The translations under genes and the position numbers were made by a program. Positions 1,133 to 12,095 of a stretch of DNA of 12,250 bases are shown here, piece after piece (the stretch's first letter is position 1; every line of letters starts with the position of its first letter). The notes under the pieces are model-generated. The model was not told where the DNA came from and did no database searches. It was given only the letters and a program-made list of their open reading frames with translations. The stretch comes from Nanopusillaceae archaeon (GTDB taxonomy: Archaea; Nanobdellota; Nanobdellia; Nanobdellales; Nanobdellaceae). The stretch is taken from assembly GCA_049973735.1 (NCBI GenBank), contig JBMFJL010000013.1, positions 1 through 12,250 on the forward strand, written 5' to 3'.

Positions 1133-1879
1133 TTAAATATAAGAAGGTAATATAGTTAATTGTGTTGGAATTCCATATACTGTTAAATTCATTAAAACAT
1201 GAAAATCATAGCTCATATGTGCAAACAAAGGAATCCAAATTGTAAATGTTTTTATTCCCAATTTCCCAAAAGTTTCTTCATTTAATATAAAACCTGAAAC
1301 TGTGAAAAATATAACTACTAAAGTCATTGGAATTAAATATATTAAAATTGCCCTTCCCCATGCATAAAAGTGGTTTGCAACAAATAGTAAACTTGAAATT
1401 AAAACTGCTAAAAATAAGCTAAATCTATAATTTTTTGTTTTTTCAATAAAATAATTAAAGAAAATTAACATTCCAACAATTCTAATTATTTCTTCATGAA
1501 ATGCAATAACAAATGTTGCTAATATATTTTCAAAAGGAGAATAAGATAAAAAAACACTCATTACTAATGAATCAGCCGGAAAAATTGAAGATTTTGCAAT
1601 ATTATATACAATTGAACCACAAAACCAACCAATAATTCCTGCAATAATAAATCTTAAAGCAATTATATGAGATGGAGCATTATTTAATGAAAAACCTAAA
1701 GCCTTGAAAAATTGAGTTCCTCTTGCTGAAACAATAATTAAAATTGGAATTAAAGTTAATGTATAAAATTCAAAAATGTTTAAATTTGTTCCTTTAATTG
1801 CAATAAAAGTTAAATATAATGCTAACCAACCAAATAAAAATAATGCTAATAATGGATTTTTTGGAATTCCTTCTATCAT
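1133..1879 (-). CDS. CPBP/PrsW-type (Abi clan, CAAX-protease-like) intramembrane protease
   Basis: 248-aa polytopic membrane protein. It carries the three ordered family motifs: FHEEIIRIVG (EExxR; canonical CPBP is EExxxR), LLFVANHFYAW (FxxxH) and LFAHMSYDF (HxxxD). Their spacing is about 40 and about 50 residues. Its ATG overlaps the stop of the upstream 1017-aa gene in an ATGA. Confidence 0.65.
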   Translation of the reverse strand: MIEGIPKNPLLALFLFGWLALYLTFIAIKGTNLNIFEFYTLTLIPILIIVSARGTQFFKALGFSLNNAPSHIIALRFIIAGIIGWFCGSIVYNIAKSSIFPADSLVMSVFLSYSPFENILATFVIAFHEEIIRIVGMLIFFNYFIEKTKNYRFSLFLAVLISSLLFVANHFYAWGRAILIYLIPMTLVVIFFTVSGFILNEETFGKLGIKTFTIWIPLFAHMSYDFHVLMNLTVYGIPTQLTILPSYI

Positions 1880-4800
1880 AATAAACTTTTCAAAAAGTTA
1901 ATTAAGTTCATTACAATATTAATTATCCATTCAATAAAATTATAAAGCCATTCAGTAAATGCAGTTGCATAAACTTTTTCTTTAACCCAAACTGAAAAAT
2001 ATTTTATTTCTCCTAAATTAAAAGAGCCCAATAATGCATCAACTATTTCATCGTTTACACAATAAAATTCTATTTCTCTTAAATTGTTTTTACCCATTGG
2101 ATCTGATGTTTCAAAAATTTTGTAAACATCAGAACATCTATAATTTTTAATTTTGAACCTTATTCTAACATCATCTAAAGGATATGGACTTAATGACCTA
2201 ACTTCAAATGGATAAATTAAGTATTGTGTTGAATCAATCAATTTTCTATAATATTGTTTCCATGTTGCATTTCCAACTGGAATTTGAAAAGATATTAAAT
2301 ATTTTCTTGATTCATATGGTTTTAAATCAAAAATATCTAAATCATAAGAGCCCCTTACAACTTTTTTCTCATCTATTAATTTATCATTATAATAAAGTTT
2401 TAAATTCTCTCCATATGTAATTGGAATTTGCTTTCTAACTGCAGGAACAAATTCTCCAATCCAATTTTTTACATCAATATCAACAATTAAATTTGCTAAA
2501 TGTCCAACATAAAACTTTTCTGGATATTTAGGAGCAGAAACTAAAACAGTAACTGGGGGACCAATAAATTCAACAATATGATATGTTTTTGAATTAGCAG
2601 GGGCACTACCTTCAACATAAATATATGGACCAATAGGTGGAAAACTAGAAAAATGCATTTCTTTTGGAATTCCATCAACTTTTGCATTTGAAGATTCTAA
2701 TGGTAAATGAATTGGTTCTTTATAATCCAATCCAACAGGATATTCATTTACACAACTTACATTCCATAAAAATATAAGATTTTCGCCAGCAATTGCATGT
2801 TTAACAGTTTTATTTATAACTTCACAATATACTTTCATCATTATTCCATAAACAACAATTTCTACATATGAATTTTCATCAATTCTTGGAATTTTAAAAG
2901 TTAATAAATCTGGCTTACCATTATTATTTGTATCATAAGTTTTCGGCGGACCATATAAAGAATTATCTAATATGCTTGGTCCCCCTCTAATATATATATC
3001 TTTAATTGATAATCTTTCATCTATTGGTAATGCAACAAAAACATCAAATAAAGTAAATGATTTTCCAGAAACATTTATTGTTAAATAATATTCCAATCTT
3101 TCAAATCTTTCAATAGTATTATAATTAATTGCTGAAATGTTTGTCCAAACTCTATAAGTTCTTTCTTCTCCAGGTAAAAAGTTTGAAAAATAAACTCTTA
3201 CTTTATTTTCATCATAATTTACTTCAATATTTTGATATTGGTCATTATATGTTACATTTACTTGATTAAATAATGATTCTGGAGGAATTGGTAATTCTTT
3301 ATATCCTTCTTTTATTTCTAATTCACCAATATTTTTTAATACAAGATCTCTAAATACTAATCCTTTCTTTCCAATTTCATATTTACAATCTGGGCAATAT
3401 TTTTTACAATATGCTTCAAAATCCCAATTTTTACATGGAATTGCATTATATGTTCCAATTTGAATAATATTAACATAACCGAATTTAAATATTGAAAATA
3501 TTGATAAAATTTTTTGTAAAATTCTTGTTATTATAACATTTCTACTTAATTCTTCAATAAAATTTTGAGTAATATTTACAGTTTTTATCACACTTTTACT
3601 TAATTTATCAATAATGCTTTCTTTTACATCATCTTTTTTTTCTGTTTTTGCTAAAATATTAATATTTTTTATTTCAAAAGAACCACTATTATCAACAGTT
3701 ATATTTACTATCAAATAGCAATAACCATTATCATCTGGATTACAAGTATTTAACCAATTAAAAAAATCTGTTTCATTAATATTAACAACTGCCGTTTGAC
3801 CTAAAAAATCACCAGAATATGAATATTCAATATTATTATCATTAAATACATCAACTCTTGGATTATTTAGATCATAATTTGAACATCCACCACCACTTCC
3901 TGGACTTGGGCATGTACAATCTGGCGGGCTAGGAGTATAAGAACACGAATAACAAGATGCACATCCTCCACCAGTATATGGTGAAGTACATGAACATGGC
4001 GGGCTAGGAGTATAAGAACATGAATAACAAGAATTACAAGTAGCAGAACAACTAACATATTCTTCACCTGTGCAAGGGTCTACTGAAGGACAAGAAGTAC
4101 TAGTTATTGCACTACATTTTCTATATGAGGTATATCCATATCCACAACCCATCCCAACAGAGTAGCAATCTGCTGTTGAAACGCCTAGAGAACATGCTGA
4201 ATCTGAATATGCAGTAAAAGAACAATAACAGGTAATAGAAGAAGGAGGGCTATAACTACATGTTTGAGTTTTTGATGTTGAACCTGGACCTTGAACACAT
4301 TGAGGAACATAAGTACCTGAACATGCATTACCACACAATCCACCAGAGCAGCTATAAACTTGTGATAAATATGCCTGAACCGATGCTGTAAAGTAGTAGG
4401 TAGATGTACAATAAATGCTAGCAGATGAATAATCATAGAAACTTAAAGAAGAACCTTCATCAGTAAAACCACTATTACATGTTGGATATAGTATACTTAC
4501 AGATGCTGAACTTCCACAACCTATTCCTTGATCATAATCATAACTACAAGTATAAGTACTTTTATAGTCTTTTATTCCTCCACCACTTCCTGGACTTGGG
4601 CATGCACAATTTTCCGAACAACTTGGGGTATAATAACATGAATAACAACTTGCAATTCCTCCACCAGTATATGGGGAAGTACATGAACAAGAAGGACAAG
4701 AAGGGGTATAAGAACAAGAATAACAAGAAACACATTCTCCAGATTTACCATAAATTGTAAAATTGAAAGGTGGAATATAAGTAAAATTTTTAAATATTTT

Positions 4801-4929
4801 AAAATAAAAAATGTTTGAACCTTTTGAAACAGAAAATGTATAAACTTTATCAGTCCCTCTATCGTAATATACTTGTGCAAATGAAATCGTGAAAAAAAGT
4901 AAAAATATTATTAATGCTTCCTTTCTCAT
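1876..4929 (-). CDS. Large secreted surface protein with an N-terminal Cys/Ser/Tyr/Thr/Gly/Pro-rich nested-repeat domain and a long beta-rich C-terminal region
   Basis: 1017-aa ORF with signal peptide MRKEALIIFLLFFTISFA/QV. Residues about 66-349 are almost exclusively C/S/Y/T/G/P, with about 40 Cys by manual count, and contain two roughly 53-aa modules. The rest is Asn/Lys/Ile/Tyr-rich with many N-x-S/T sequons. The C-terminus is amphipathic and hydrophobic (...FIEWIINIVMNLINFLKSLL). Confidence 0.9.
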   Translation of the reverse strand: MRKEALIIFLLFFTISFAQVYYDRGTDKVYTFSVSKGSNIFYFKIFKNFTYIPPFNFTIYGKSGECVSCYSCSYTPSCPSCSCTSPYTGGGIASCYSCYYTPSCSENCACPSPGSGGGIKDYKSTYTCSYDYDQGIGCGSSASVSILYPTCNSGFTDEGSSLSFYDYSSASIYCTSTYYFTASVQAYLSQVYSCSGGLCGNACSGTYVPQCVQGPGSTSKTQTCSYSPPSSITCYCSFTAYSDSACSLGVSTADCYSVGMGCGYGYTSYRKCSAITSTSCPSVDPCTGEEYVSCSATCNSCYSCSYTPSPPCSCTSPYTGGGCASCYSCSYTPSPPDCTCPSPGSGGGCSNYDLNNPRVDVFNDNNIEYSYSGDFLGQTAVVNINETDFFNWLNTCNPDDNGYCYLIVNITVDNSGSFEIKNINILAKTEKKDDVKESIIDKLSKSVIKTVNITQNFIEELSRNVIITRILQKILSIFSIFKFGYVNIIQIGTYNAIPCKNWDFEAYCKKYCPDCKYEIGKKGLVFRDLVLKNIGELEIKEGYKELPIPPESLFNQVNVTYNDQYQNIEVNYDENKVRVYFSNFLPGEERTYRVWTNISAINYNTIERFERLEYYLTINVSGKSFTLFDVFVALPIDERLSIKDIYIRGGPSILDNSLYGPPKTYDTNNNGKPDLLTFKIPRIDENSYVEIVVYGIMMKVYCEVINKTVKHAIAGENLIFLWNVSCVNEYPVGLDYKEPIHLPLESSNAKVDGIPKEMHFSSFPPIGPYIYVEGSAPANSKTYHIVEFIGPPVTVLVSAPKYPEKFYVGHLANLIVDIDVKNWIGEFVPAVRKQIPITYGENLKLYYNDKLIDEKKVVRGSYDLDIFDLKPYESRKYLISFQIPVGNATWKQYYRKLIDSTQYLIYPFEVRSLSPYPLDDVRIRFKIKNYRCSDVYKIFETSDPMGKNNLREIEFYCVNDEIVDALLGSFNLGEIKYFSVWVKEKVYATAFTEWLYNFIEWIINIVMNLINFLKSLL
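3883..4038 (-). repeat. Cys-rich module copy A (aa about 298-349: CNSCYSCSYTPSPPCSCTSPYTGGGCASCYSCSYTPSPPDCTCPSPGSGGGC)
   Basis: Contains two 35-nt sub-repeats (3923-3957 and 3998-4032) that differ at 1 position. Each encodes SCYSCSYTPSPP. It shares caccacttcctggacttgggcatgYacaat with copy B. Confidence 0.9.
4576..4734 (-). repeat. Cys-rich module copy B (aa about 66-118: CVSCYSCSYTPSCPSCSCTSPYTGGGIASCYSCYYTPSCSENCACPSPGSGGG)
   Basis: Lies exactly 690 nt (230 codons) from copy A. The 30-nt stretch 4581-4610 matches 3891-3920 at 29/30 positions. The rest of the module is conserved at protein level but more diverged at DNA level. Confidence 0.9.
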
Positions 4930-4947
4930 AATATTATGGAAGAAAGG
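4920..4947. promoter_or_regulatory. Palindromic head-to-head start region of the divergent operons
   Basis: The sequence is CCTTTCT-CATAATATTATG-GA-AGAAAGG. The 12-bp core CATAATATTATG (4927-4938) is a perfect palindrome whose two ends are the start codons of the minus-strand gene (4929) and the plus-strand gene (4936). The flanking CCTTTCT / AGAAAGG arms are complementary, with a 2-nt offset. Confidence 0.6.
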
Positions 4948-5571
4948 CTAATAATGTTTATTGTAACGTCATTAATTGTAATATTTGTATCATATATTGC
5001 TTCTTTTGTTCATGGTTCTTTGTTCATTTTATCTACAATATTTGCCTCCCTATCTTCTTTATTATTTTTTTATAAAAATGAATATCCAATTTTAAAACTT
5101 TTTCTATTTTTCTTTTTATCAACTTTAATATTTTCAATTTTTATTAATCTTTTTTTCCCTAACATTTATAAAGAAATAAAAGAAGAATTAGGAATGGGTG
5201 AAAAATTAGAAAGTAAAGAAAATTTATTAAGAACAATATTTTCTCACAACTTATCATTATATTTACAAGCTTTCATTTTATCTTCTCTTTCAATTGTTGG
5301 TGGTTTTATATATTTATTTTGGAATTTATTACTTTTTTGGATTCTTATTATTAATAGTATAAATCCATTTTTTACATTTATTATTTTAGCACCTCATGGA
5401 ATTTTAGAGTTTTTCTCTTTTTATCTTGCCTCAATTTCTGGAACAAAAATATTTAAAAATTTAATACTTAAAGAAGAAATAAGTGAAAAAGAAATTTTGA
5501 AAATGTTTTTATTTGGAATTTTAATTTTATTTATTGCAGCATTAATTGAAGTTTTAATAATTTCATTATGA
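4936..5571 (+). CDS. SpoIIM/DUF95-like polytopic membrane protein
   Basis: 211-aa multi-TM ORF. It carries the family-typical segments ...SHNLSLYLQAFILSSLSIVGG... and ...IILAPHGILEFFSFYLASISG... (the PHGxxE motif). An alternative start is M7 at 4954. The stop overlaps the next gene in an ATGA. Confidence 0.65.
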   Translation: MEERLIMFIVTSLIVIFVSYIASFVHGSLFILSTIFASLSSLLFFYKNEYPILKLFLFFFLSTLIFSIFINLFFPNIYKEIKEELGMGEKLESKENLLRTIFSHNLSLYLQAFILSSLSIVGGFIYLFWNLLLFWILIINSINPFFTFIILAPHGILEFFSFYLASISGTKIFKNLILKEEISEKEILKMFLFGILILFIAALIEVLIISL

Positions 5572-6002
5572 TTTTATTAGAAGGAAACGAGAGAAAATTA
5601 ATTTTATATTTGTTAGAAAAGAAATATATTGATTCAAAAAGTAGAATTTCAAAAGAACTTGGATTACATAAATTTACAGTTTCAAACATATTGAAAAAAT
5701 TTGAAAAATATGGAATAATTAATAATAATACAATTGATAAAAGTAAAATAAAAATTGAAAGAAACAATGAATATTTAATAGAAAATATTCAATTTTTAAT
5801 TTTGGGAATGATTTTAGCAATAATTGTTTGTTTAGTTTATTTAAATATATCAATTTTATTAGGTGCATTGCTTGTTTATATTCCCCAAACTTTTTGGGTT
5901 ATAAGGAATTATTTATTTAATAAAGATATGTGGAAAATTTATATAATTAGTCAAGAAATTGAACAAAAAATGGATAACAAATCACTAAATATATCAAATT
6001 GA
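5568..6002 (+). CDS. Membrane-tethered winged-helix (MarR/ArsR/TrmB-like) transcriptional regulator
   Basis: 144-aa ORF. The N-terminus NERKLILYLLEKKYIDSKSRISKELGLHKFTVSNILKKFEKYGII has the classic wHTH pattern. It is followed by a long hydrophobic stretch (IQFLILGMILAIIVCLVYLNISILLGALLVYIP) that predicts 1-2 TM helices. Translationally coupled to the upstream gene. Confidence 0.7.
   Translation: MILLEGNERKLILYLLEKKYIDSKSRISKELGLHKFTVSNILKKFEKYGIINNNTIDKSKIKIERNNEYLIENIQFLILGMILAIIVCLVYLNISILLGALLVYIPQTFWVIRNYLFNKDMWKIYIISQEIEQKMDNKSLNISN
5986..5993 (+). promoter_or_regulatory. TATA-like box (TAAATATA) for the 6012 gene
   Basis: Located at -26..-19 relative to the ATG at 6012, the same position as TTAAATAT upstream of the ATG at 10659. 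No SD lies between it and the ATG. It sits inside the 3' end of the regulator CDS. Confidence 0.35.
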
Positions 6003-6011
6003 ATTAAGATT

Positions 6012-6641
6012 ATGGCCCTAAAAACTCAAGCAAATATATGGTTAGTAGTATTGCTATTACTAGGAATATTAGCAATAGCATTATATGTTAGACCACCAGC
6101 AGCTGTTCCACCAGCACCAGTAAAATATGAAGGAGAATTTAGAGCAATAGGATTACCAATGGAAGTAACTGGAACATGGTTAACTGGAAGTGAACAAGTA
6201 GTAACTCAATATGGTCAATATAACTTTACAACAAAGAAAGCATTAAGTGTTGTAGGTTCAGTATATCCATTAGCATTTAGATTTGATATAGATGATGCAT
6301 TTGAAAAAGTAAGAATAGATATTACAAAATTGTCAAGTGAGATTGATTTAGTAGAGGCTTGTATATTACCAGATGAAAAAGAAATGACATTAGATTGTAA
6401 AAATGCATTATATAAAGCAGAAATTGATACAGTAAGAGGTACAGCAGAATTTAAGATTGACAATTTAAGTGATAAGCAATATGATAAATATGTAATGCTA
6501 TTATCAACAAAAGTTACAGATCCAGCAGTAAATTCTACATATGTTACAGCAGATAGTGATCTATTCAAGCTAGTATTTGATGGTAAAAGTGATGGAGATG
6601 TTAAGGACTTTACAGTAATGATAATTAATGGAGGTTATTAA
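6012..6641 (+). CDS. Secreted or N-terminally anchored beta-rich protein, probably abundant and structural
   Basis: 209-aa ORF. The N-terminus MALKTQANIWLVVLLLLGILAIALYV is followed by a Pro/Ala linker (RPPAAVPPAPV). Codon choice is visibly different from neighbouring membrane genes (gca/gta/aca/gga-rich). It ends in a double stop TAATAG followed by an oligo-T terminator. Confidence 0.85.
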   Translation: MALKTQANIWLVVLLLLGILAIALYVRPPAAVPPAPVKYEGEFRAIGLPMEVTGTWLTGSEQVVTQYGQYNFTTKKALSVVGSVYPLAFRFDIDDAFEKVRIDITKLSSEIDLVEACILPDEKEMTLDCKNALYKAEIDTVRGTAEFKIDNLSDKQYDKYVMLLSTKVTDPAVNSTYVTADSDLFKLVFDGKSDGDVKDFTVMIINGGY

Positions 6642-6650
6642 TAGCTAGCC

Positions 6651-6672
6651 TCTCTCTTTTTTTTATTTTTTT
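6651..6672 (+). terminator. Oligo-T (archaeal-type) terminator
   Basis: tctctcttttttttattttttt lies 10 nt after the stop of the 6012 gene. It has no stem-loop. It closely resembles the tract at 9707-9727. Confidence 0.55.
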
Positions 6673-6704
6673 CACAATTTTTTTATGGAAAAAGAATTTA
6701 AATA
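6673..6704 (+). promoter_or_regulatory. Conserved promoter box 1 (CACAATTTTTTTATGGAAAA) plus TATA-like TTTAAATA
   Basis: The 20-bp box spans -48..-29 relative to the ATG at 6721. The TATA-like octamer lies at -24..-17 and is preceded by a purine-rich BRE-like GGAAAAAGA. The dyad is TCACAA-N5-TTATGG. Confidence 0.65.
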
Positions 6705-6720
6705 ATAATTAAATAGTATT

Positions 6721-7299
6721 ATGGCTAAAATAGAAAAGCCATCAATAATTGGAATAATAATTATTACTATTTTTGTAGTTGGATACTTTCTTTTTTCCAA
6801 AACTTTTCAACAAATTAGAGGAGTAAGATATGAAAAAGTAAAAACGCCATATGGGGAGGTAAAATATGAAGTTCGAATACCAACTATGTATGTAAAAGGT
6901 TCTTTTGAAATTGGTTGTATGGATATATGGATAAAAAAATGGTGTTGGTTGGTTGATAAGAGTGTAAAAATTGAAACTGTAGAATTAAGATATACAAAGC
7001 CATTATTTGAAATTTTTAAACCAAAAATACCAACACTTGCAATATGGACTGATCCTGCAATTATTACCACAAAATTAAAACTTATATCACCATCCGGTAA
7101 TGTATACGAATATGTAGATATGAAAGAAGTAAAATTTTATGATCCAGGAAAATATACAACAGAATTTACAACCGACTTTCTAAATGAAGAAGGTAGATGG
7201 CAAGTAACTCTTATTGTTATTGAACATAGAGAAGGAAAAGAATTAAGAGATTCAACTATTGTTGATGTAAGATTCCAAAAAATACCAGTAGGAACATAA
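6721..7299 (+). CDS. N-terminally anchored or secreted beta-sandwich-like protein
   Basis: 192-aa ORF with signal anchor MAKIEKPSIIGIIIITIFVVGYFLF. The remainder is beta-strand-type sequence (e.g. GKYTTEFTTDFLNEEGRWQVTLIVIE). It is the first gene behind box 1. Confidence 0.85.
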   Translation: MAKIEKPSIIGIIIITIFVVGYFLFSKTFQQIRGVRYEKVKTPYGEVKYEVRIPTMYVKGSFEIGCMDIWIKKWCWLVDKSVKIETVELRYTKPLFEIFKPKIPTLAIWTDPAIITTKLKLISPSGNVYEYVDMKEVKFYDPGKYTTEFTTDFLNEEGRWQVTLIVIEHREGKELRDSTIVDVRFQKIPVGT

Positions 7300-7300
7300 C

Positions 7301-7657
7301 ATGCTTCCTATTATTCTTAAAGTGATAATAATCTTATTACCAATTTTATTTATTGCATTTTCTGCTTATATTGTTTATTCTATTATTAATTTATTTATTA
7401 CAGTTTTAGATCTTTTAACTCCAGTAGTTGCATTTATTTTATCAATTTTCATATATATGGAGCTGTATAAATATTTAAAAAGCTTTACTGAATTAAGTGA
7501 AACATCAAGAGCAATTATTTCAGGAATTGCAGCAATTTTAGCATTTATATTTATGGTAAAAAGTTTTGTAAACTTAGTATTAATTGCAATATTTATTCTT
7601 ACAGTTTACTTTATTGTTAAAAATTTAAAGTCTATAAAAGAATTCATTAAACCATAA
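7301..7657 (+). CDS. Small polytopic membrane protein (3-4 TM)
   Basis: 118-aa hydrophobic ORF starting 1 nt after the previous stop. An AGGA lies about 8 nt upstream, consistent with an internal-gene SD. Confidence 0.7.
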   Translation: MLPIILKVIIILLPILFIAFSAYIVYSIINLFITVLDLLTPVVAFILSIFIYMELYKYLKSFTELSETSRAIISGIAAILAFIFMVKSFVNLVLIAIFILTVYFIVKNLKSIKEFIKP

Positions 7658-7684
7658 TTTTTTTGTGGAAAAACGATTTAAAAA
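7653..7684 (+). promoter_or_regulatory. Conserved promoter box 2 (CATAATTTTTTTGTGGAAAA) plus TATA-like TTTAAAAA
   Basis: Same -48..-29 position relative to the ATG at 7701. The dyad is CCATAA-N5-TTGTGG. The box overlaps the TAA stop (7655-7657) of the preceding gene, so its T7 run could also act as that unit's terminator. Confidence 0.65.
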
Positions 7685-7700
7685 AGATAAAATATAAATT

Positions 7701-8576
7701 ATGAGCATAAAAAATCAAGCAGGATTAATAGTAGGAATAACACTAATGATATTAGGAATAATTGGCTTATTAGATGAAATGGGTATAATAGACCTTAAAT
7801 TATTATCAGCATATCAACAAGGAAATCCGGGAATGGGGTTAAAACTATCAATAAAACCAGTATCATTATTCCCATTAGAAGTTGTTGAACCAGGAAAAAC
7901 ATATGAATTTGAAGTAACATTAAGAAATACTGGTACCATGAATTGGGATTCTGCTTGGGTCCATCTCAGAATTCCAAATTATAGAAATACAGGAAAGACA
8001 ACAACTAATGTACCAATAGGAGGAACATTAACTAGAAGCTGTGATTCAGGTGCTACAGAAATTCCAACTGGCTCTTGTAGCGAGGGTGTAGAGGTTGGAT
8101 GGACAGGTCAATGTGTTCAAGGATACGATCATTATGTTGTAGAATGGATACAAAAACCAGGAACTAAAAAATGTGTTGCAGACCATTCCACTTATAGTAG
8201 TAGTATAGATATGAATCAAATTATAACAAAAGTATCAGGAGATGGAAATTTTGTTAGAGATGGAAATTTTGTTAGAATTGATTATGGTTCAGTAAGTGCA
8301 GGAGCAAGTAAAACAACAAGACTAAGAATTACAATACCTTCAGATTTGCCAAATAAAATGTTTAATGACCCAAACGAAATTAATTATGTGCCATTAGTAA
8401 TAACAGGAGGAGCAAGTGCAGGCGGAACAAGAGCATTTGAAACAAAAATTATACAATTGCAAAATGGTGCAGTTTTTGCTTATGAATTTACAGTAAGATG
8501 GATAGGATTAGTATCAGCTGCAATAATTGGCACAGCATTAACTCTATTTTTCAGTAGAAGATTAGGATATATATGA
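7701..8576 (+). CDS. Surface protein with a CARDB/Ig-like beta-sandwich region, a 4-Cys insert and a C-terminal motif + TM + basic tail
   Basis: 291-aa ORF with N-terminus MSIKNQAGLIVGITLMILGIIGLL. LEVVEPGKTYEFEVTLRNTG is a typical CARDB/NEW3-like strand pattern. The C-terminus is FAYEFTVRWIG-LVSAAIIGTALTLFF-SRRLGYI. Confidence 0.9.
   Translation: MSIKNQAGLIVGITLMILGIIGLLDEMGIIDLKLLSAYQQGNPGMGLKLSIKPVSLFPLEVVEPGKTYEFEVTLRNTGTMNWDSAWVHLRIPNYRNTGKTTTNVPIGGTLTRSCDSGATEIPTGSCSEGVEVGWTGQCVQGYDHYVVEWIQKPGTKKCVADHSTYSSSIDMNQIITKVSGDGNFVRDGNFVRIDYGSVSAGASKTTRLRITIPSDLPNKMFNDPNEINYVPLVITGGASAGGTRAFETKIIQLQNGAVFAYEFTVRWIGLVSAAIIGTALTLFFSRRLGYI
8241..8276 (+). repeat. Perfect 18-bp tandem duplication (gatggaaattttgttaga x2)
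   Basis: 8241-8258 is identical to 8259-8276. The duplication is in frame and encodes DGNFVR-DGNFVR. Confidence 0.95.
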
Positions 8577-9343
8577 AAATTAAATTAGAACATTTAGCAA
8601 TAGTAGCAGCAATAGTAGTAGGTCTATATTTAGCTAAGACTTTCCTTCTTTCTTATATTTCTTATGTAAAATTAACATCAGATAGATACCATCTTCTTTA
8701 TGGTAAACCTGTTACTTTTACACTTACTTGCGAATATTATTTAAATGAGGGAGGAAAATATACAGTAAAAGTTGGAGATTGTACTTATAGTTATTATTGG
8801 GCTAGTAGTGGATTAAAAACAGATACGTGTACATATAAAGATAGCATTTTTTATACAGAAGGTGGTAAAACATTTTATTGTGAAGTTACACATGAAAGTA
8901 GTGGGGAAAAGAAAACAGCTTCTGTAACTGTTTGTTTTGATAGAGTTGAAAATTTAAGAGTAAGTCCAACATCTATTACAGTTTCACCAGGGCAAAAATA
9001 TACTATAACAGTTGAACTAAATGCTTATAGTTATGGGGCATGTGCTACTTATAATAAAAAAATTTATATAGATAATAATTTGGTTGATAGTTTTAGTTAT
9101 TTAAGCAATAATTATTATAAAAAATCATTTGAGCTAACTGCTCCAAGCAATCCAGGAACTTATACTAAATACGTAAGGGTAAAAACATATGATGATGCAT
9201 TTGAATTTACCTCAACATCTTTTACAGTAACTGTTACTTCTTCTCAACCATCACAACAATTTGGTTATGAATTTGTATATAGATGGATAGGTCAGGTTTT
9301 ATCATTAATAAAAGAAGCTTTATCATTAATTAAACCTATTTAA
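8573..9343 (+). CDS. Secreted or anchored Ig-like/CARDB-like protein, C-terminal paralog of the 7701 gene product
   Basis: 256-aa ORF in an ATGA overlap with the upstream gene, with an AGGA 5 nt upstream. The N-terminal TM is MKIKLEHLAIVAAIVVGLYLAKTFLL. Ig-like patterns include VSPTSITVSPGQKYTITVELN and APSNPGTYTKYVRVKT. The C-terminus is FGYEFVYRWIGQVLSLIKEALSLIKPI. Confidence 0.85.
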   Translation: MKIKLEHLAIVAAIVVGLYLAKTFLLSYISYVKLTSDRYHLLYGKPVTFTLTCEYYLNEGGKYTVKVGDCTYSYYWASSGLKTDTCTYKDSIFYTEGGKTFYCEVTHESSGEKKTASVTVCFDRVENLRVSPTSITVSPGQKYTITVELNAYSYGACATYNKKIYIDNNLVDSFSYLSNNYYKKSFELTAPSNPGTYTKYVRVKTYDDAFEFTSTSFTVTVTSSQPSQQFGYEFVYRWIGQVLSLIKEALSLIKPI

Positions 9344-9384
9344 ATATATCGATATAATTAAATATATATTTTTCCACATTTTCC

Positions 9385-9416
9385 CACAATTTTTTTATGG
9401 AAAATAGTTATATATG
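9385..9416 (+). promoter_or_regulatory. Conserved promoter box 3 (CACAATTTTTTTATGGAAAA) plus TATA-like TTATATAT
   Basis: Same -48..-29 position relative to the ATG at 9433. The dyad is CCACAA-N5-TTATGG. An extra half-site-like CCACAT lies 10 bp upstream (9374-9379). Confidence 0.65.
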
Positions 9417-9432
9417 AAATATATCTAATAGT

Positions 9433-9705
9433 ATGGAAGCAATTGGATTAACTACAATGCTATCTATAGTATTATTAGCAGTGTTAGGATTGCTAAATGC
9501 AAGAGTTAGAAGGACAGAAGAGCATGTAAAAGATATAGCAATGACATTAGCAATAGTAATGATTCTATCATTCGTACTTGGAACTCTTTTAGGAGAACAA
9601 GTTCTTTTTACTGCAACAGATATAGTTAGAACAATAATTGTAGGAATTGTAGCATATATAACAGGGTTAATAGTTGGTTATGCAAGAGAAAAAGTAACTG
9701 CTTAA
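9433..9705 (+). CDS. Small three-helix hydrophobic membrane protein in its own monocistronic unit
   Basis: 90-aa ORF with three hydrophobic helices. It has its own box 3 promoter and an oligo-T terminator immediately after the stop. Its codon choice resembles the other putatively abundant genes. Confidence 0.8.
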   Translation: MEAIGLTTMLSIVLLAVLGLLNARVRRTEEHVKDIAMTLAIVMILSFVLGTLLGEQVLFTATDIVRTIIVGIVAYITGLIVGYAREKVTA

Positions 9706-9706
9706 T

Positions 9707-9727
9707 CCCTTTTCTTTTTTATTTTTT
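9707..9727 (+). terminator. Oligo-T (archaeal-type) terminator
   Basis: cccttttcttttttatttttt lies directly after the TAA of the 9433 gene. It has the same C/T-rich lead followed by a T-run, an A and a second T-run, as at 6651-6672. Confidence 0.55.
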
Positions 9728-10078
9728 ATGAGAGTATGGAAAATATCTTTATTAATTTTAATTTTTTGGATAATTTTTATCAATGTTTTTTCAAATTATG
9801 AAATAAAAATAGAAGAAAACAAAACAAAAAATTTTGGTAATAGTTCTAATGTAAATATAGGAACAATGGCAAGCTTAACAGTAGAAGTAAAAAGGGCTAA
9901 ATATTTTTTCATTTTTCCAACATATATATATTTTTATAAGCCAATTATTTCAAATTTTAATATTTATTTAGTTCCTGGAGAAATTAGGGTTTTTGAAATT
10001 ACAATTGCATTAATAATTATTACTTTAATTCTTTTTATTTTTGATATTTTAAAGCGAAAAGATTATGAATTAATTTAA
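9728..10078 (+). CDS. Hypothetical bitopic membrane protein (N- and C-terminal TM)
   Basis: 116-aa ORF with N-terminal TM ISLLILIFWIIFINVF and C-terminal TM ITIALIIITLILFIF followed by KRK. It starts directly at the end of the terminator T-tract with no visible promoter, so expression is uncertain. Confidence 0.5.
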   Translation: MRVWKISLLILIFWIIFINVFSNYEIKIEENKTKNFGNSSNVNIGTMASLTVEVKRAKYFFIFPTYIYFYKPIISNFNIYLVPGEIRVFEITIALIIITLILFIFDILKRKDYELI

Positions 10079-10086
10079 TATATATT

Positions 10087-10623
10087 ATGGTTTCAAAGAA
10101 ATTGCTAATAGCTATTACATTAATAGGAATTTTATTAGGAATAGCAATTATATTTAAAGGAAATGAAAATTTAAAAGCTAGTGGCAAATATTTAACAACA
10201 GTAGAAATATATAAAAATGGGGAATTAATATGGAAAGGAAGTAATGTAATAACAGATATAGGATTTAACTTTACAAGAGGACAACTTTTAACACCATTAA
10301 CAGGAGTATCATTAAAATATATTAGCTTATCAAATGTTAGCGGAGTTTGTTCTAATACAGCAACAAATATACAAGAATTAAATGTATGTGGATTAACAAG
10401 AGCTGAAGGAACAGTTACACAATATGGATATAACCAATATATAGTTGAGAAAACATTTACATTAACTTGTGATGTTCCAAACGTTCAAGTAGCAGGATTG
10501 CATTGGGATCCAACAGCACAATCTGATAATAATTTATTTAGTTGTGCTAGCTTTCCAGTAGTTAATTTAGTAACTAATGACCAAATAACAATTAGGTGGA
10601 ATGTGACAATGATAGAAGGTTAA
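10087..10623 (+). CDS. N-terminally anchored or secreted beta-rich protein
   Basis: 178-aa ORF with N-terminus MVSKKLLIAITLIGILLGIAIIF. The all-beta-like remainder contains 4 Cys. Codon choice resembles the 6012, 7701 and 9433 genes. Confidence 0.85.
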   Translation: MVSKKLLIAITLIGILLGIAIIFKGNENLKASGKYLTTVEIYKNGELIWKGSNVITDIGFNFTRGQLLTPLTGVSLKYISLSNVSGVCSNTATNIQELNVCGLTRAEGTVTQYGYNQYIVEKTFTLTCDVPNVQVAGLHWDPTAQSDNNLFSCASFPVVNLVTNDQITIRWNVTMIEG

Positions 10624-10631
10624 CAGAAAAG

Positions 10632-10667
10632 CTTAAATATCTTTTCCATAATTATTTTATGGTAAAA
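10632..10667 (+). promoter_or_regulatory. TATA-like box (TTAAATAT, -26..-19) followed by variant box 4 (CATAATTATTTTATGGTAAAA) that overlaps the start codon
   Basis: The first 16 nt of the box differ from the CAYAATTTTTTTATGG consensus at one position. The dyad is CCATAA-N5-TTATGG, with extended arms CTTTTCCATAA / TTATGGTAAAAG. The ATG inside the box (10659) is the likely start of the next gene. Confidence 0.5.
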
Positions 10668-12095
10668 AGAATAATAATATTAATAATAATATTAAGCATA
10701 TTGCCAATAATATTTGCAGACTCAATAAATCCAAACAATTTAACTATATATGGATATGAAGGTGAAGAAGGGATTAGAGAATTTACTTTAACATTAGATA
10801 CAAATGAAACATGTTATTGGTATATTCCTTCTCCAACATTTGGATATGTTGATATAAGATTTTATCCATCAAAAATTTTGGGTCCAATTCAAACTACAAT
10901 TGCATTATGGTATAAATTAAAAAATGCAGGAAATTTTAATATTACAGCATATTATTGTAATGCATCTTTAAATTTAAATTTTATTGTTTCTCCTAAACCG
11001 ATTCAAACAGTTCAAACTCAAACAAATCAAACTCAAACATGCCCAAGAATAGTTAAAGTTTTTGGTTCTCCAAATCCGGGAAAAACAATAACATTTGATG
11101 TAAGAAATGAGCAATATTTTAGAGTTAAACATTCGGAGCAATCAATTTCACTAACTGATGAAGAAGGGAACACATATAATGTTGAATGTCCAAACGGTTT
11201 TTGCAAGTTTCAAATTCCTGAAACAGTTCAATCAGGAAAATTGGTATATGAAGTTGTTGTTCCTGGTTGTGAACCTTATGTTGGGGAAATAGAAATAAAA
11301 CCTCTTGGACAAATACAAATTAGTGCTCCAAGTAATATAAAATATGGAATAACATTTTTTGTTTATATTTTTGACCCTTTCAAAGGACCAATAAAATATG
11401 CAAATGTAAAAATTTTGAAACCTAATGGAGAAGTAATAAATGCAAGGACAAATGAAAATGGAATTGTTACAGACGAATCATTAACAAAAACTTTTGGAAA
11501 GGAGTTGTATCCAAATATGATTGGACCTTGGAAAATACAAGTATTTCAACCTGGATATGCCCAAGCAACATATGAAATAAATGTAGAAAAAGGAGCGTGC
11601 CCATTTGAATGTTGTGTTAATGAAGAACTTTATGTTGATAAGGAATGTGCTCCAGGGTATTACTGTTTAAATAGGGTTTGTAAATTAAAGGAACTTCCAA
11701 AAATAGATATAATTTGTGACCCATTACCAGAAATTGGAGCTAAATCAATTTGTAAATTATATTCTAATAATACAACTTTAAAAATAACAACAGATGCAGA
11801 TTTTATTTATGCTGGGGAAGCAATAAAAGTAAGATTTGTTGATGGAGAAGCAACAATAAATTGGGATAGAGTTGGAAATTATAAATTAATTGTCCAACCA
11901 GAAGGATATCAAAAAGCAATATTAGAAGGTGAAATTAAAGGTATGCAAATTCCTTTAGGTTTAGTAGCTGCAATTATTTTTATATTATTAATAGTAATCT
12001 TTATATTTTTAAAGAAAAAATATGAAGAAAAACCAAAAGAAACGAGAAAAATTAAAGTTGTTGCAAAAGGAAAAGGTGCACTTGAGGAGATATGA
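10659..12095 (+). CDS. Type I membrane surface protein with CarboxypepD_reg/Ig-like beta-sandwich domains, a QT-rich linker, a six-Cys knot and a C-terminal TM anchor
   Basis: The track ORF starts at 10596, but in-frame M22 (10659) gives a clean signal peptide MVKRIIILIIILSILPIIFA/DS, removes the overlap with the previous gene, and sits behind a TATA-like box. FDPFKGPIKYANVKILKPNGEVINARTNENGIVTDE is a CarboxypepD_reg-like pattern. The C-terminal TM is LGLVAAIIFILLIVIFIFL followed by a Lys-rich tail. Confidence 0.85.
   Translation: MVKRIIILIIILSILPIIFADSINPNNLTIYGYEGEEGIREFTLTLDTNETCYWYIPSPTFGYVDIRFYPSKILGPIQTTIALWYKLKNAGNFNITAYYCNASLNLNFIVSPKPIQTVQTQTNQTQTCPRIVKVFGSPNPGKTITFDVRNEQYFRVKHSEQSISLTDEEGNTYNVECPNGFCKFQIPETVQSGKLVYEVVVPGCEPYVGEIEIKPLGQIQISAPSNIKYGITFFVYIFDPFKGPIKYANVKILKPNGEVINARTNENGIVTDESLTKTFGKELYPNMIGPWKIQVFQPGYAQATYEINVEKGACPFECCVNEELYVDKECAPGYYCLNRVCKLKELPKIDIICDPLPEIGAKSICKLYSNNTTLKITTDADFIYAGEAIKVRFVDGEATINWDRVGNYKLIVQPEGYQKAILEGEIKGMQIPLGLVAAIIFILLIVIFIFLKKKYEEKPKETRKIKVVAKGKGALEEI

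Follow-up and report, generated by a model that had tools for sequence, protein, structure and literature searches.

The variant-specific surface proteins (VSPs, PF03302) of Giardia are extracellular, C-terminally anchored and variable proteins with about 11-14% Cys, many CXXC motifs and a Ser/Thr/Gly-rich composition, and are thought to form a tough coat. The type IV pilin of Neisseria carries an exposed hypervariable loop between conserved cys1/cys2, which are the borders of its recombinational replacement. We describe here a region with likenesses to both systems in a contig of 12,250 nt (considered as a whole and called the window below) from a metagenome-assembled genome of a Nanopusillaceae archaeon (Nanoarchaeales, DPANN). 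The source was named by a 100% identity match, and the protein is NCBI ACP5G1_01570. The interval 3883-4734 (minus strand) encodes residues 66-349 (284 aa) of a 1017-aa open reading frame (ORF, 1876-4929). In our interpretation, which we consider as probable, this region is a recognition or adhesion module made of a probably disulfide-braced stalk and a head, carried at the membrane-distal end of an anchored surface protein. We observed a conserved architecture inserted in a display domain, an exchange of heads with its breakpoints in homologs, and local gene conversion.

A preliminary description of the region had reported a composition rich in Cys, Ser, Tyr, Thr, Gly and Pro with almost no charged or aliphatic residues. 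The richness was confirmed (C 40, S 63, Y 32, G 31, T 28 and P 22 in 284 aa), but with 18 D/E/K/R and 35 A/V/I/L residues the charged and aliphatic ones are more accurately described as few. With a background Cys frequency of 1.3% (other 14 ORFs and remainder of the protein), the binomial P for at least 40 Cys in 284 residues is 3.7e-28. The local rise in GC content that had been seen is real (0.35-0.42 vs 0.19-0.25 in the surroundings) and is located solely at codon position 2 (0.70 vs 0.29), position 3 being AT-rich (0.11 vs 0.08). Because position 3 is unchanged, the rise is explained by amino-acid composition in native codon usage, and the acquisition of GC-rich DNA by horizontal transfer was rejected on the same ground. 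The two modules with the described motif structure are present (residues 66-118 and 298-349, 79% DNA identity). Their distance, given as exactly 230 codons, was found for the C[AT]CPSPGSGGG tails (690 nt) and not for the other sub-elements, the 105-nt repeat being spaced by 693 nt and the SCYSC cores by 231-232 codons.

The modules belong to a family of Cys units. A first protein search gave ten homologs, mostly unnamed metagenomic proteins (one assigned to Aenigmatarchaeota), covering about 53% of the query protein and bearing the same Cys modules in their N-terminal regions; a metagenome scan gave eleven further loci with the same layout. The unit consensus, derived from 40 units in 9 proteins, is C-x2-C-x-Y-T-P-x4-C-x-C-x-S-P-[Y/G]-S-G-G-G (about 26 aa). 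In a 7-sequence alignment all unit core Cys are invariant, as well as the Tyr and Pro of Y-T-P, and the head between the modules keeps a Cys framework of its own, so that the earlier term "low-complexity domain" had to be abandoned. A unit profile built from the homologs detected exactly 4 units in the window ORF (E 2.6e-29), and none in the other window ORFs or in the other ORFs of two homologous loci (L001 and L003).

The number of units on the N-side of the head equals that on the C-side in 15 of 18 proteins, repeat copy number among relatives taking the matched values 2+2 (once, the window protein), 3+3 (twelve proteins) or 4+4 (two proteins). Five Cys are present in 73 of the 102 units of these 18 proteins. 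The two sides are asymmetric in this respect: a linker Cys (YTPSCP) occurs in 29/53 N-side units vs 0/49 C-side units, and the extra Cys of the C-side is located just upstream of the unit.

The absence of any recognised described domain was borne out by searches of Pfam, NCBIfam, PHROGs and PDB sequences, and no known Cys-rich family was matched in profile searches. Pfam and NCBIfam at E<=10 gave zero families with residues 64-353, with module B by itself or with the homologs P0003, P0007, P0008 and P0012. The only Pfam match of the whole window protein is a weak DUF7570, and PHROGs gave only phrog_4822 (function not known, E 0.003), both outside the Cys region; PDB sequences gave nothing with either the whole protein or the unit profile. 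In the literature searched on cysteine-rich or hypervariable DPANN surface proteins, no description of the unit, the stalk, the head or the display domain was found. The cysteine-rich proteins of Asgard viruses were considered and rejected, as they are small HNH-like nucleases and not related. Among GTDB species representatives, the patterns used retrieved one confirmed locus, L004 (Ca. Naiadarchaeum), with the host domain only.

The host domain was delimited with an N-terminal profile, which gave 623 matches (E<=1e-3) in a set of 1.84 billion representative proteins, mostly driven by the C-terminal half of this domain. Cys units were present in only 9 of the 156 proteins examined (150 matches listed and earlier matches), the remaining ones matching two short flanking pieces only. 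The first piece, or N-half, has the consensus TFYIKIPKNxxVxxAxLNxSG and corresponds to residues ~28-62 of the window protein (profile positions ~45-88). The second piece, or C-half, has the consensus NPxLDxxxDGxxEWSxSGEFN...INxYLSTCxxDSNGxCxVPLxxHSDxAGxIQISxINIxY and corresponds to residues 350-428, which follow the pattern NP..D....EYSYSG.F....VN.N....NWL.TC.PD.NGYC... in the window protein. At least 136 ordered N/C-half pairs were counted among the matches listed, enclosing unrelated inserts of 56-382 aa (median 181). Inserts recognised by Pfam are binding-type modules, namely the carbohydrate-binding module (CBM) CBM96 (P0037), FG-GAP (P0022) and a Vgb-lyase-like propeller (P0013); by eye, those of P0016 and P0020 look LamG/ConA-like, Pfam giving no such match for P0016. 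No Pfam model covers the two halves, and a word-indexed protein search with the C-half profile gave one protein.

Structure prediction was performed using AlphaFold2 (AF2). With 7 sequences the mean predicted local distance difference test (pLDDT) score was 47 and the model of stalk and head was unusable; with 27 sequences both halves of the host domain were predicted with high confidence (Table 1), the insert remaining below 50. Because the halves co-occur, keep their order and are each confidently predicted, they may be considered as a single beta-sandwich from one loop of which the Cys block leaves. The display sandwich looks like an undescribed and widespread domain family.

Heads were compared after dividing every family member into N-flank, N-stalk, head, C-stalk and C-flank, with identities calculated at the protein level. 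L005 and L008 have flanks identical at 100/99% (N/C) and heads at 43%; for P0003 and L012 these values are 98/98% and 57%, and for P0007 and L009 97/92% and 22%, the latter two differing in head type and unit number. L015, which starts inside the N-flank, has a C-flank 94-96% identical to those of L005 and L008 and a head identical at 32% and 22% respectively, while its comparison with L009 gives 50% in the C-flank and 62% in the head. Along the L005 and L008 genes, the DNA is 97-100% identical as far as residue ~160, 27-62% identical over residues ~170-350 (68% at 350), and 85-100% identical again from residue ~360 onwards, which places the transitions within the last unit of the N-side (149-169) and the first of the C-side (369-388). 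Identical flanks around a divergent centre, with breakpoints in conserved borders as in cassette variation, were observed in this way in the homologs. In three of four clusters defined at >=90% identity, the variable sites concentrate in the head (~58%, 69% and 79%), the fourth cluster having only 3 differing sites.

Synonymous divergence (dS) between L001 and L012 is 0.83 in the head vs 0.11-0.16 in the flanks, and between L005 and L008 it is saturated in the head vs 0.01 in the flanks. The ratio of nonsynonymous (dN) to synonymous divergence is ~0.5 in the head vs ~0.05 in the flanks (including L001 vs L012). Because dS rises together with dN, these values point to the import of head alleles with no local hypermutation, and in-situ positive selection was rejected as the source of head divergence for the same reason. 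The heads can thus be considered as old divergent alleles that have been moved between backbones by recombination. They keep a common Cys framework (14 alignment columns with >=80% Cys), to which the head of the window protein aligns at ~30% identity; that the window's own lineage also swaps heads would follow by extension from its homologs.

A near-identical pair of repeats had also been reported, together with a recent duplication or conversion. The pair is real: the cores at 3997-4032 and 3922-3957, in units B1 and B2, differ by 1 synonymous substitution in 36 nt, and they are located in the lower-coordinate module, that is, the C-terminal module of the protein. A recent event is supported by the rarity of such near-identity among homologous genes, the closest pair of unit cores differing at 9-14/36 nt in 10 of 11 of them; near-identical neighbours were found only in the window gene (1/36) and in L009 (3/36), which has four C-side units. 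Homogenisation is confined to the first half of B1 and B2, where it takes in the rare-codon run AGC-CCG-CCA, and the tails differ (CSCTSPYTGGG vs DCTCPSPGSGGG), for which reason a short gene-conversion tract fits the pair better than the duplication of a whole unit. The near-identity of B1 and B2 thus points to recent local gene conversion. The tails of A1 and B1 show 1 difference in 36 nt (read from the alignment) and those of A2 and B2 2 in 35 (94% identity), which is consistent with sequence exchange between the two limbs of the stalk as well.

The following mechanism is proposed. In this secreted protein of an episymbiotic DPANN archaeon, a conserved beta-sandwich close to the N-terminus would receive residues 66-349 in one of its loops, and the chain would ascend via A1 and A2, form a head of ~180 aa and descend via the matching B1 and B2. 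A putative signal peptide at the start and the C-terminal anchors place this module at the membrane-distal end: the protein finishes in a hydrophobic/amphipathic helix (...NLINFLKSLL), and homologs with three different C-terminal bodies all finish in such helices or in clear transmembrane (TM) anchors. Since the region is extracellular (signal peptide, membrane-anchored homologs), a disulfide-rich structural role is plausible. The limbs are most likely cross-braced by disulfides, as judged from units with an odd number of Cys (five), from the Cys spacing, which is invariant, and from the location outside the cell, and would form a rigid support resistant to heat and proteases. An even number of Cys was also considered as evidence for disulfides and was rejected, as the boundaries are arbitrary and only 12/18 proteins are even. 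The pairing of the N-side limb with the C-side limb is inferred from the equal unit counts and from the N/C asymmetry of the extra Cys. The exposed head would be the specificity element, most likely for the surface of another cell and, in this lineage, most plausibly for that of the host archaeon, given its distal position and the fact that other proteins carry binding-type inserts at this site. In the family, heads are replaced wholesale between strains through homologous recombination in the repeat units; with crossovers located inside conserved units, the repeats would serve as both structural elements and recombination handles.

Several points weigh against this interpretation. The disulfides, the limb pairing and the ligand are deduced, the pLDDT of stalk and head (25-50) being too low for Cys pairing, and the contact between the host halves is derived from co-occurrence and prediction confidence, not from model coordinates. 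Foldseek comparison of the host domain with PDB and BFVD gave nothing significant: a chondroitin-sulfate CBM was matched at E 0.17, the best BFVD match had E 0.11, and the weak list mostly contained CBM4/32/35/61, MAM and MATH jelly rolls and included phage tail proteins. The C-half profile gave nothing below E 0.2 in the PDB. Three divergent members (P0009, P0012 and P0014) have no equal N/C unit counts. Head exchange was seen in other lineages, 30-40% identical to the window protein, and the searches brought up no close relative of the window gene. Finally, the habitats may be reducing, which would disfavour extracellular disulfides, and the C-x2-C...C-x-C tetrads could bind metal instead.

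The last two points are also those that favour metal-binding beads, in which each unit would chelate Zn or Fe for storage, sensing or metal-driven folding. With its four invariant Cys, each unit could formally provide a Cys4 site; the settings in which these organisms often live are reducing and make disulfides harder to maintain; and CXXC-rich Giardia VSPs bind Zn. We consider such beads as unlikely. The majority count of five Cys instead of four per unit, the extracellular location behind a signal peptide and a Tyr content of 11%, atypical of metallothioneins, do not agree with them; no zinc-ribbon, metallothionein or other metal-domain model was matched at E<=10, nor any PDB sequence, and the hypervariable exchanged head and the matched unit numbers would be left unexplained.

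It is also improbable that the protein is a purely structural, cross-linked component of the wall or S-layer in which variability reflects drift in an unconstrained spacer. The high Cys, Ser, Gly and Tyr content of a large secreted and anchored protein would suit this role, as would the distribution of N-glycosylation sequons (0 in residues 66-349 vs 11 elsewhere in the protein), and Nanoarchaeota do have an S-layer (PMC4935971). A drifting spacer would however not be expected to keep a head Cys framework, nor to show whole-allele exchange, breakpoints in repeats and ancient dS, and other proteins have CBM96, FG-GAP and propeller domains, which are binding modules, at this insertion site. The family is moreover sparse, with the single GTDB-representative locus mentioned above, unlike a core S-layer gene.

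Table 1. Features of the gene containing the Cys-rich region, with positions in the window.
Feature	Position	Strand	Basis
1017-aa surface protein gene, ACP5G1_01570	1876..4929	-	ORF list; 100% identity match
Sec-type signal peptide, residues 1-19, MRKEALIIFLLFFTISFAQ	4873..4929	-	inferred from sequence reading; AF2 helix residues 3-16
N-terminal half of split display beta-sandwich, residues ~28-62	4744..4848	-	pLDDT 84-92 (alignment A3)
N-side stalk, residues 66-118: units A1 (66-92) and A2 (93-118)	4576..4734	-	motif, unit profile; A1 Cys invariant
Cys-framework head, residues 119-297, 19 Cys	4039..4575	-	segmentation and framework alignment; hypervariable, exchanged in homologs
C-side stalk, residues 298-349: units B1 (298-322) and B2 (323-348), closing Cys349	3883..4038	-	motif, unit profile
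B1 36-nt core, SCYSCSYTPSPP, partner of near-identical pair	3997..4032	-	1/36 nt different from 3922-3957
B2 36-nt core, SCYSCSYTPSPP, other partner of near-identical pair	3922..3957	-	1/36 nt different from 3997-4032
C-terminal half of split display beta-sandwich, residues 350-428	3646..3882	-	pLDDT 89-96; E 4e-24 vs profile of alignment A2
Protein body, residues 429-990	1960..3645	-	homologous to P0002-P0006; without known domains
C-terminal hydrophobic/amphipathic helix, residues ~991-1017, probable anchor	1879..1959	-	sequence reading; equivalents in homologs

The display sandwich often occurs 2-3 times per protein (P0013-P0156), and many proteins have an extra partial C-half right behind the complete one (P0017, P0025, P0029). 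P0003 is accompanied in L001 by giant proteins of 2216 and 2168 aa with DUF2341 and LamG domains (L001:12445-19095; L001:20059 onward), and by a Peptidase_M10 gene. P0071, a protein of 2216 aa, possesses a split display domain of its own, in which the Cys-containing insert is a different one (residues 934-1203), and is probably this 2216-aa neighbour (same length, same Pfam domains). With its own copy, the display domain would be reused within one locus.

In the window, the neighbourhood of the gene consists of small N-terminally anchored secreted proteins, a helix-turn-helix (HTH) regulator, a SpoIIM-like protein and a weak CPBP/Rce1-like protein. Ten small-protein genes are found at 6012-12095 (plus strand), most with a single N-terminal hydrophobic segment and some looking pilin-like, for example MSIKNQAGLIVGITLMILG. 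The proteins encoded at 6012-6641, 7701-8576 and 10087-10623 have homologs beside the family genes of L001/L003 (E 1e-13, 1e-6 and 2e-12), so that linkage is partly conserved, which suggests a conserved cluster of surface-structure genes. An intergenic motif of ~58 nt with the core CCAYAATTTTTTTRTGGAAAA... occurs in three copies (6667-6724, 7647-7704 and 9379-9436; 67-72% identical to the reference copy), each ending at the ATG of a plus-strand gene (6721, 7701 and 9433), and is probably a shared promoter or operator of the secreted-protein gene cluster. A perfect 18-nt tandem duplication (8239-8276, 2.1 copies, 100% match) is located within ORF 7701-8576; being perfect and yielding DGNFVR-DGNFVR, it is considered as a very recent in-frame event. 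The gene at 10596-12095 encodes a further Cys-containing surface protein of the contig, which is secreted, 499 aa long and TM-anchored at its C-terminus. Its 15 Cys include those of the cluster GACPFECCVNEELYVDKECAPGYYCLNRVCKL, and a CarboxypepD_reg-like domain was seen below the threshold (E 1.9e-5; 25.4 bits, the cut-off being 32.3); the protein gave no match to the unit or host-domain profiles.

On the other side, the start of a gene for a 248-aa polytopic membrane protein (1133-1879, minus strand; Rce1/CPBP-like match at E 0.015) overlaps the stop of the large ORF by 4 nt. This gene was considered as a dedicated partner and rejected, the match being weak and no such gene being listed beside the homologs in L001 or L003. 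Divergently upstream, at 4936-6002 (plus strand), a SpoIIM-like membrane protein (E 4e-9) and an HTH-plus-TM regulator are encoded in overlapping coding regions.

In L003 (Aenigmatarchaeota metagenome-assembled genome GCA_038999945.1, JAWBVK010000001.1), a 610-aa gene at 15191-17023 matches the Pfam models Fsx1 and HAP2-GCS1 and is an archaeal fusexin. It shares its strand with P0008 and is found 4.5 kb downstream of that gene; a 1609-aa DUF2341 protein is encoded just upstream. The fusexin and the hypervariable display protein may be functionally linked; no fusexin was found in the window.

Fusexins have been reported on integrated mobile elements (PMC9259645), and their proximity to the Aenigmatarchaeota homolog could indicate that the protein is not a cellular adhesin but comes from a virus or integrated element, in which it would bind receptors or form a spike, its exchangeable head setting host range. 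The contents of the 12-kb contig, mostly small membrane or secreted proteins with an HTH regulator, and the phage tail proteins of the weak Foldseek list point in the same direction. This origin is nevertheless highly unlikely: no relative was found in 2.9 million IMG/VR contigs, the single PHROGs match is weak and of a family whose function is not known, and Pfam and PHROGs scans of the window gave no integrase, capsid, terminase or replication gene. Codon position 3 is native, and the SpoIIM and CPBP-like neighbours are of cellular type. As for an assembly artefact behind the repeats or their near-identity, the metagenomic origin of the contig is its one argument and its chance is negligible, since the repeats are only 36-105 nt long, in frame and with the ORF preserved, and more than 18 independent assemblies (JGI, ENA, NCBI, Logan) agree in the order of the units.

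The cultured member of the Nanopusillaceae is an obligate ectosymbiont on Acidilobus, and according to the authors of the Nanopusillus isolation the proteins behind host recognition and attachment are not known (PMC4935971). How DPANN archaea and Nanoarchaeota recognise and hold their hosts is an open question, for which the stalk-and-head module is a concrete candidate. We also put forward, tentatively and as a doubtful possibility, that the units could form a disulfide ladder of adjustable length (2, 3 or 4 rungs) and at the same time fixed crossover sites for a swapping of heads that changes host attachment or evades host or viral recognition. If true, archaea would have in this system their own counterpart to antigenic or host-range variation, on an undescribed fold and display domain. 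Two sequence families missing from Pfam, NCBIfam and PDB, the 26-aa Cys unit and the split display beta-sandwich, could help to find surface-interaction genes in uncultured archaea, the sandwich carrying interchangeable inserts in hundreds of mostly unannotated metagenomic proteins.

Among the known systems, keratin-associated proteins and metallothioneins, of the kinds proposed as analogies in the preliminary description, share a high Cys content in a context rich in Ser, Gly, Tyr and Pro. They have no homology with the region, are intracellular or belong to a eukaryotic matrix, and are without an invariant 4-Cys unit; not being display-domain inserts and having no exchanged head, they leave the insertion, the matched two-limb stalk and the strain-exchanged head unaccounted for. 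The targets of diversity-generating retroelements (DGRs) in DPANN archaea are reportedly hypervariable ligand-binding surface domains. A DGR was rejected here, as no reverse transcriptase domain was found in the window ORFs and no template repeat or second head copy in the 12-kb contig. DGR targets accumulate adenine-specific substitutions on a conserved backbone, whereas the heads of the strain pairs can essentially not be aligned as DNA, and their differences are spread over all codon positions, with a dS of 0.8 or saturated. CBM-type jelly-roll scaffolds are beta-sandwiches with inserted modules, as is the split host domain, whose loop carries CBM96, FG-GAP or propeller inserts in other proteins; they differ in that the host domain has no significant match to them (Foldseek E 0.17, PDB profile none below 0.2).

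The pilin of Neisseria resembles the present family in having breakpoints in Cys-encoding borders, which are here the Cys units. It has another fold and no homology, and draws on pilS silent cassettes in the same genome, whereas no silent head copies were found in the window, L001 or L003 and exchange apparently takes place between strains. Giardia VSPs resemble it as Cys-rich, variable and anchored surface proteins. They vary by expression switching among many genes, and the family described here by head replacement inside one gene; they are without the 26-aa YTP...SPYxGGG unit and the beta-sandwich insertion, and the window region has neither a Pfam match at E<=10 nor the VSP CRGKA tail. Variable surface proteins with conserved recombination borders are thus an already known kind, of which pilin and Giardia VSPs are the nearest analogies, and what the libraries searched do not contain is the unit of 26 aa, the stalk with its two matched limbs, the head with its Cys framework and the split display domain.

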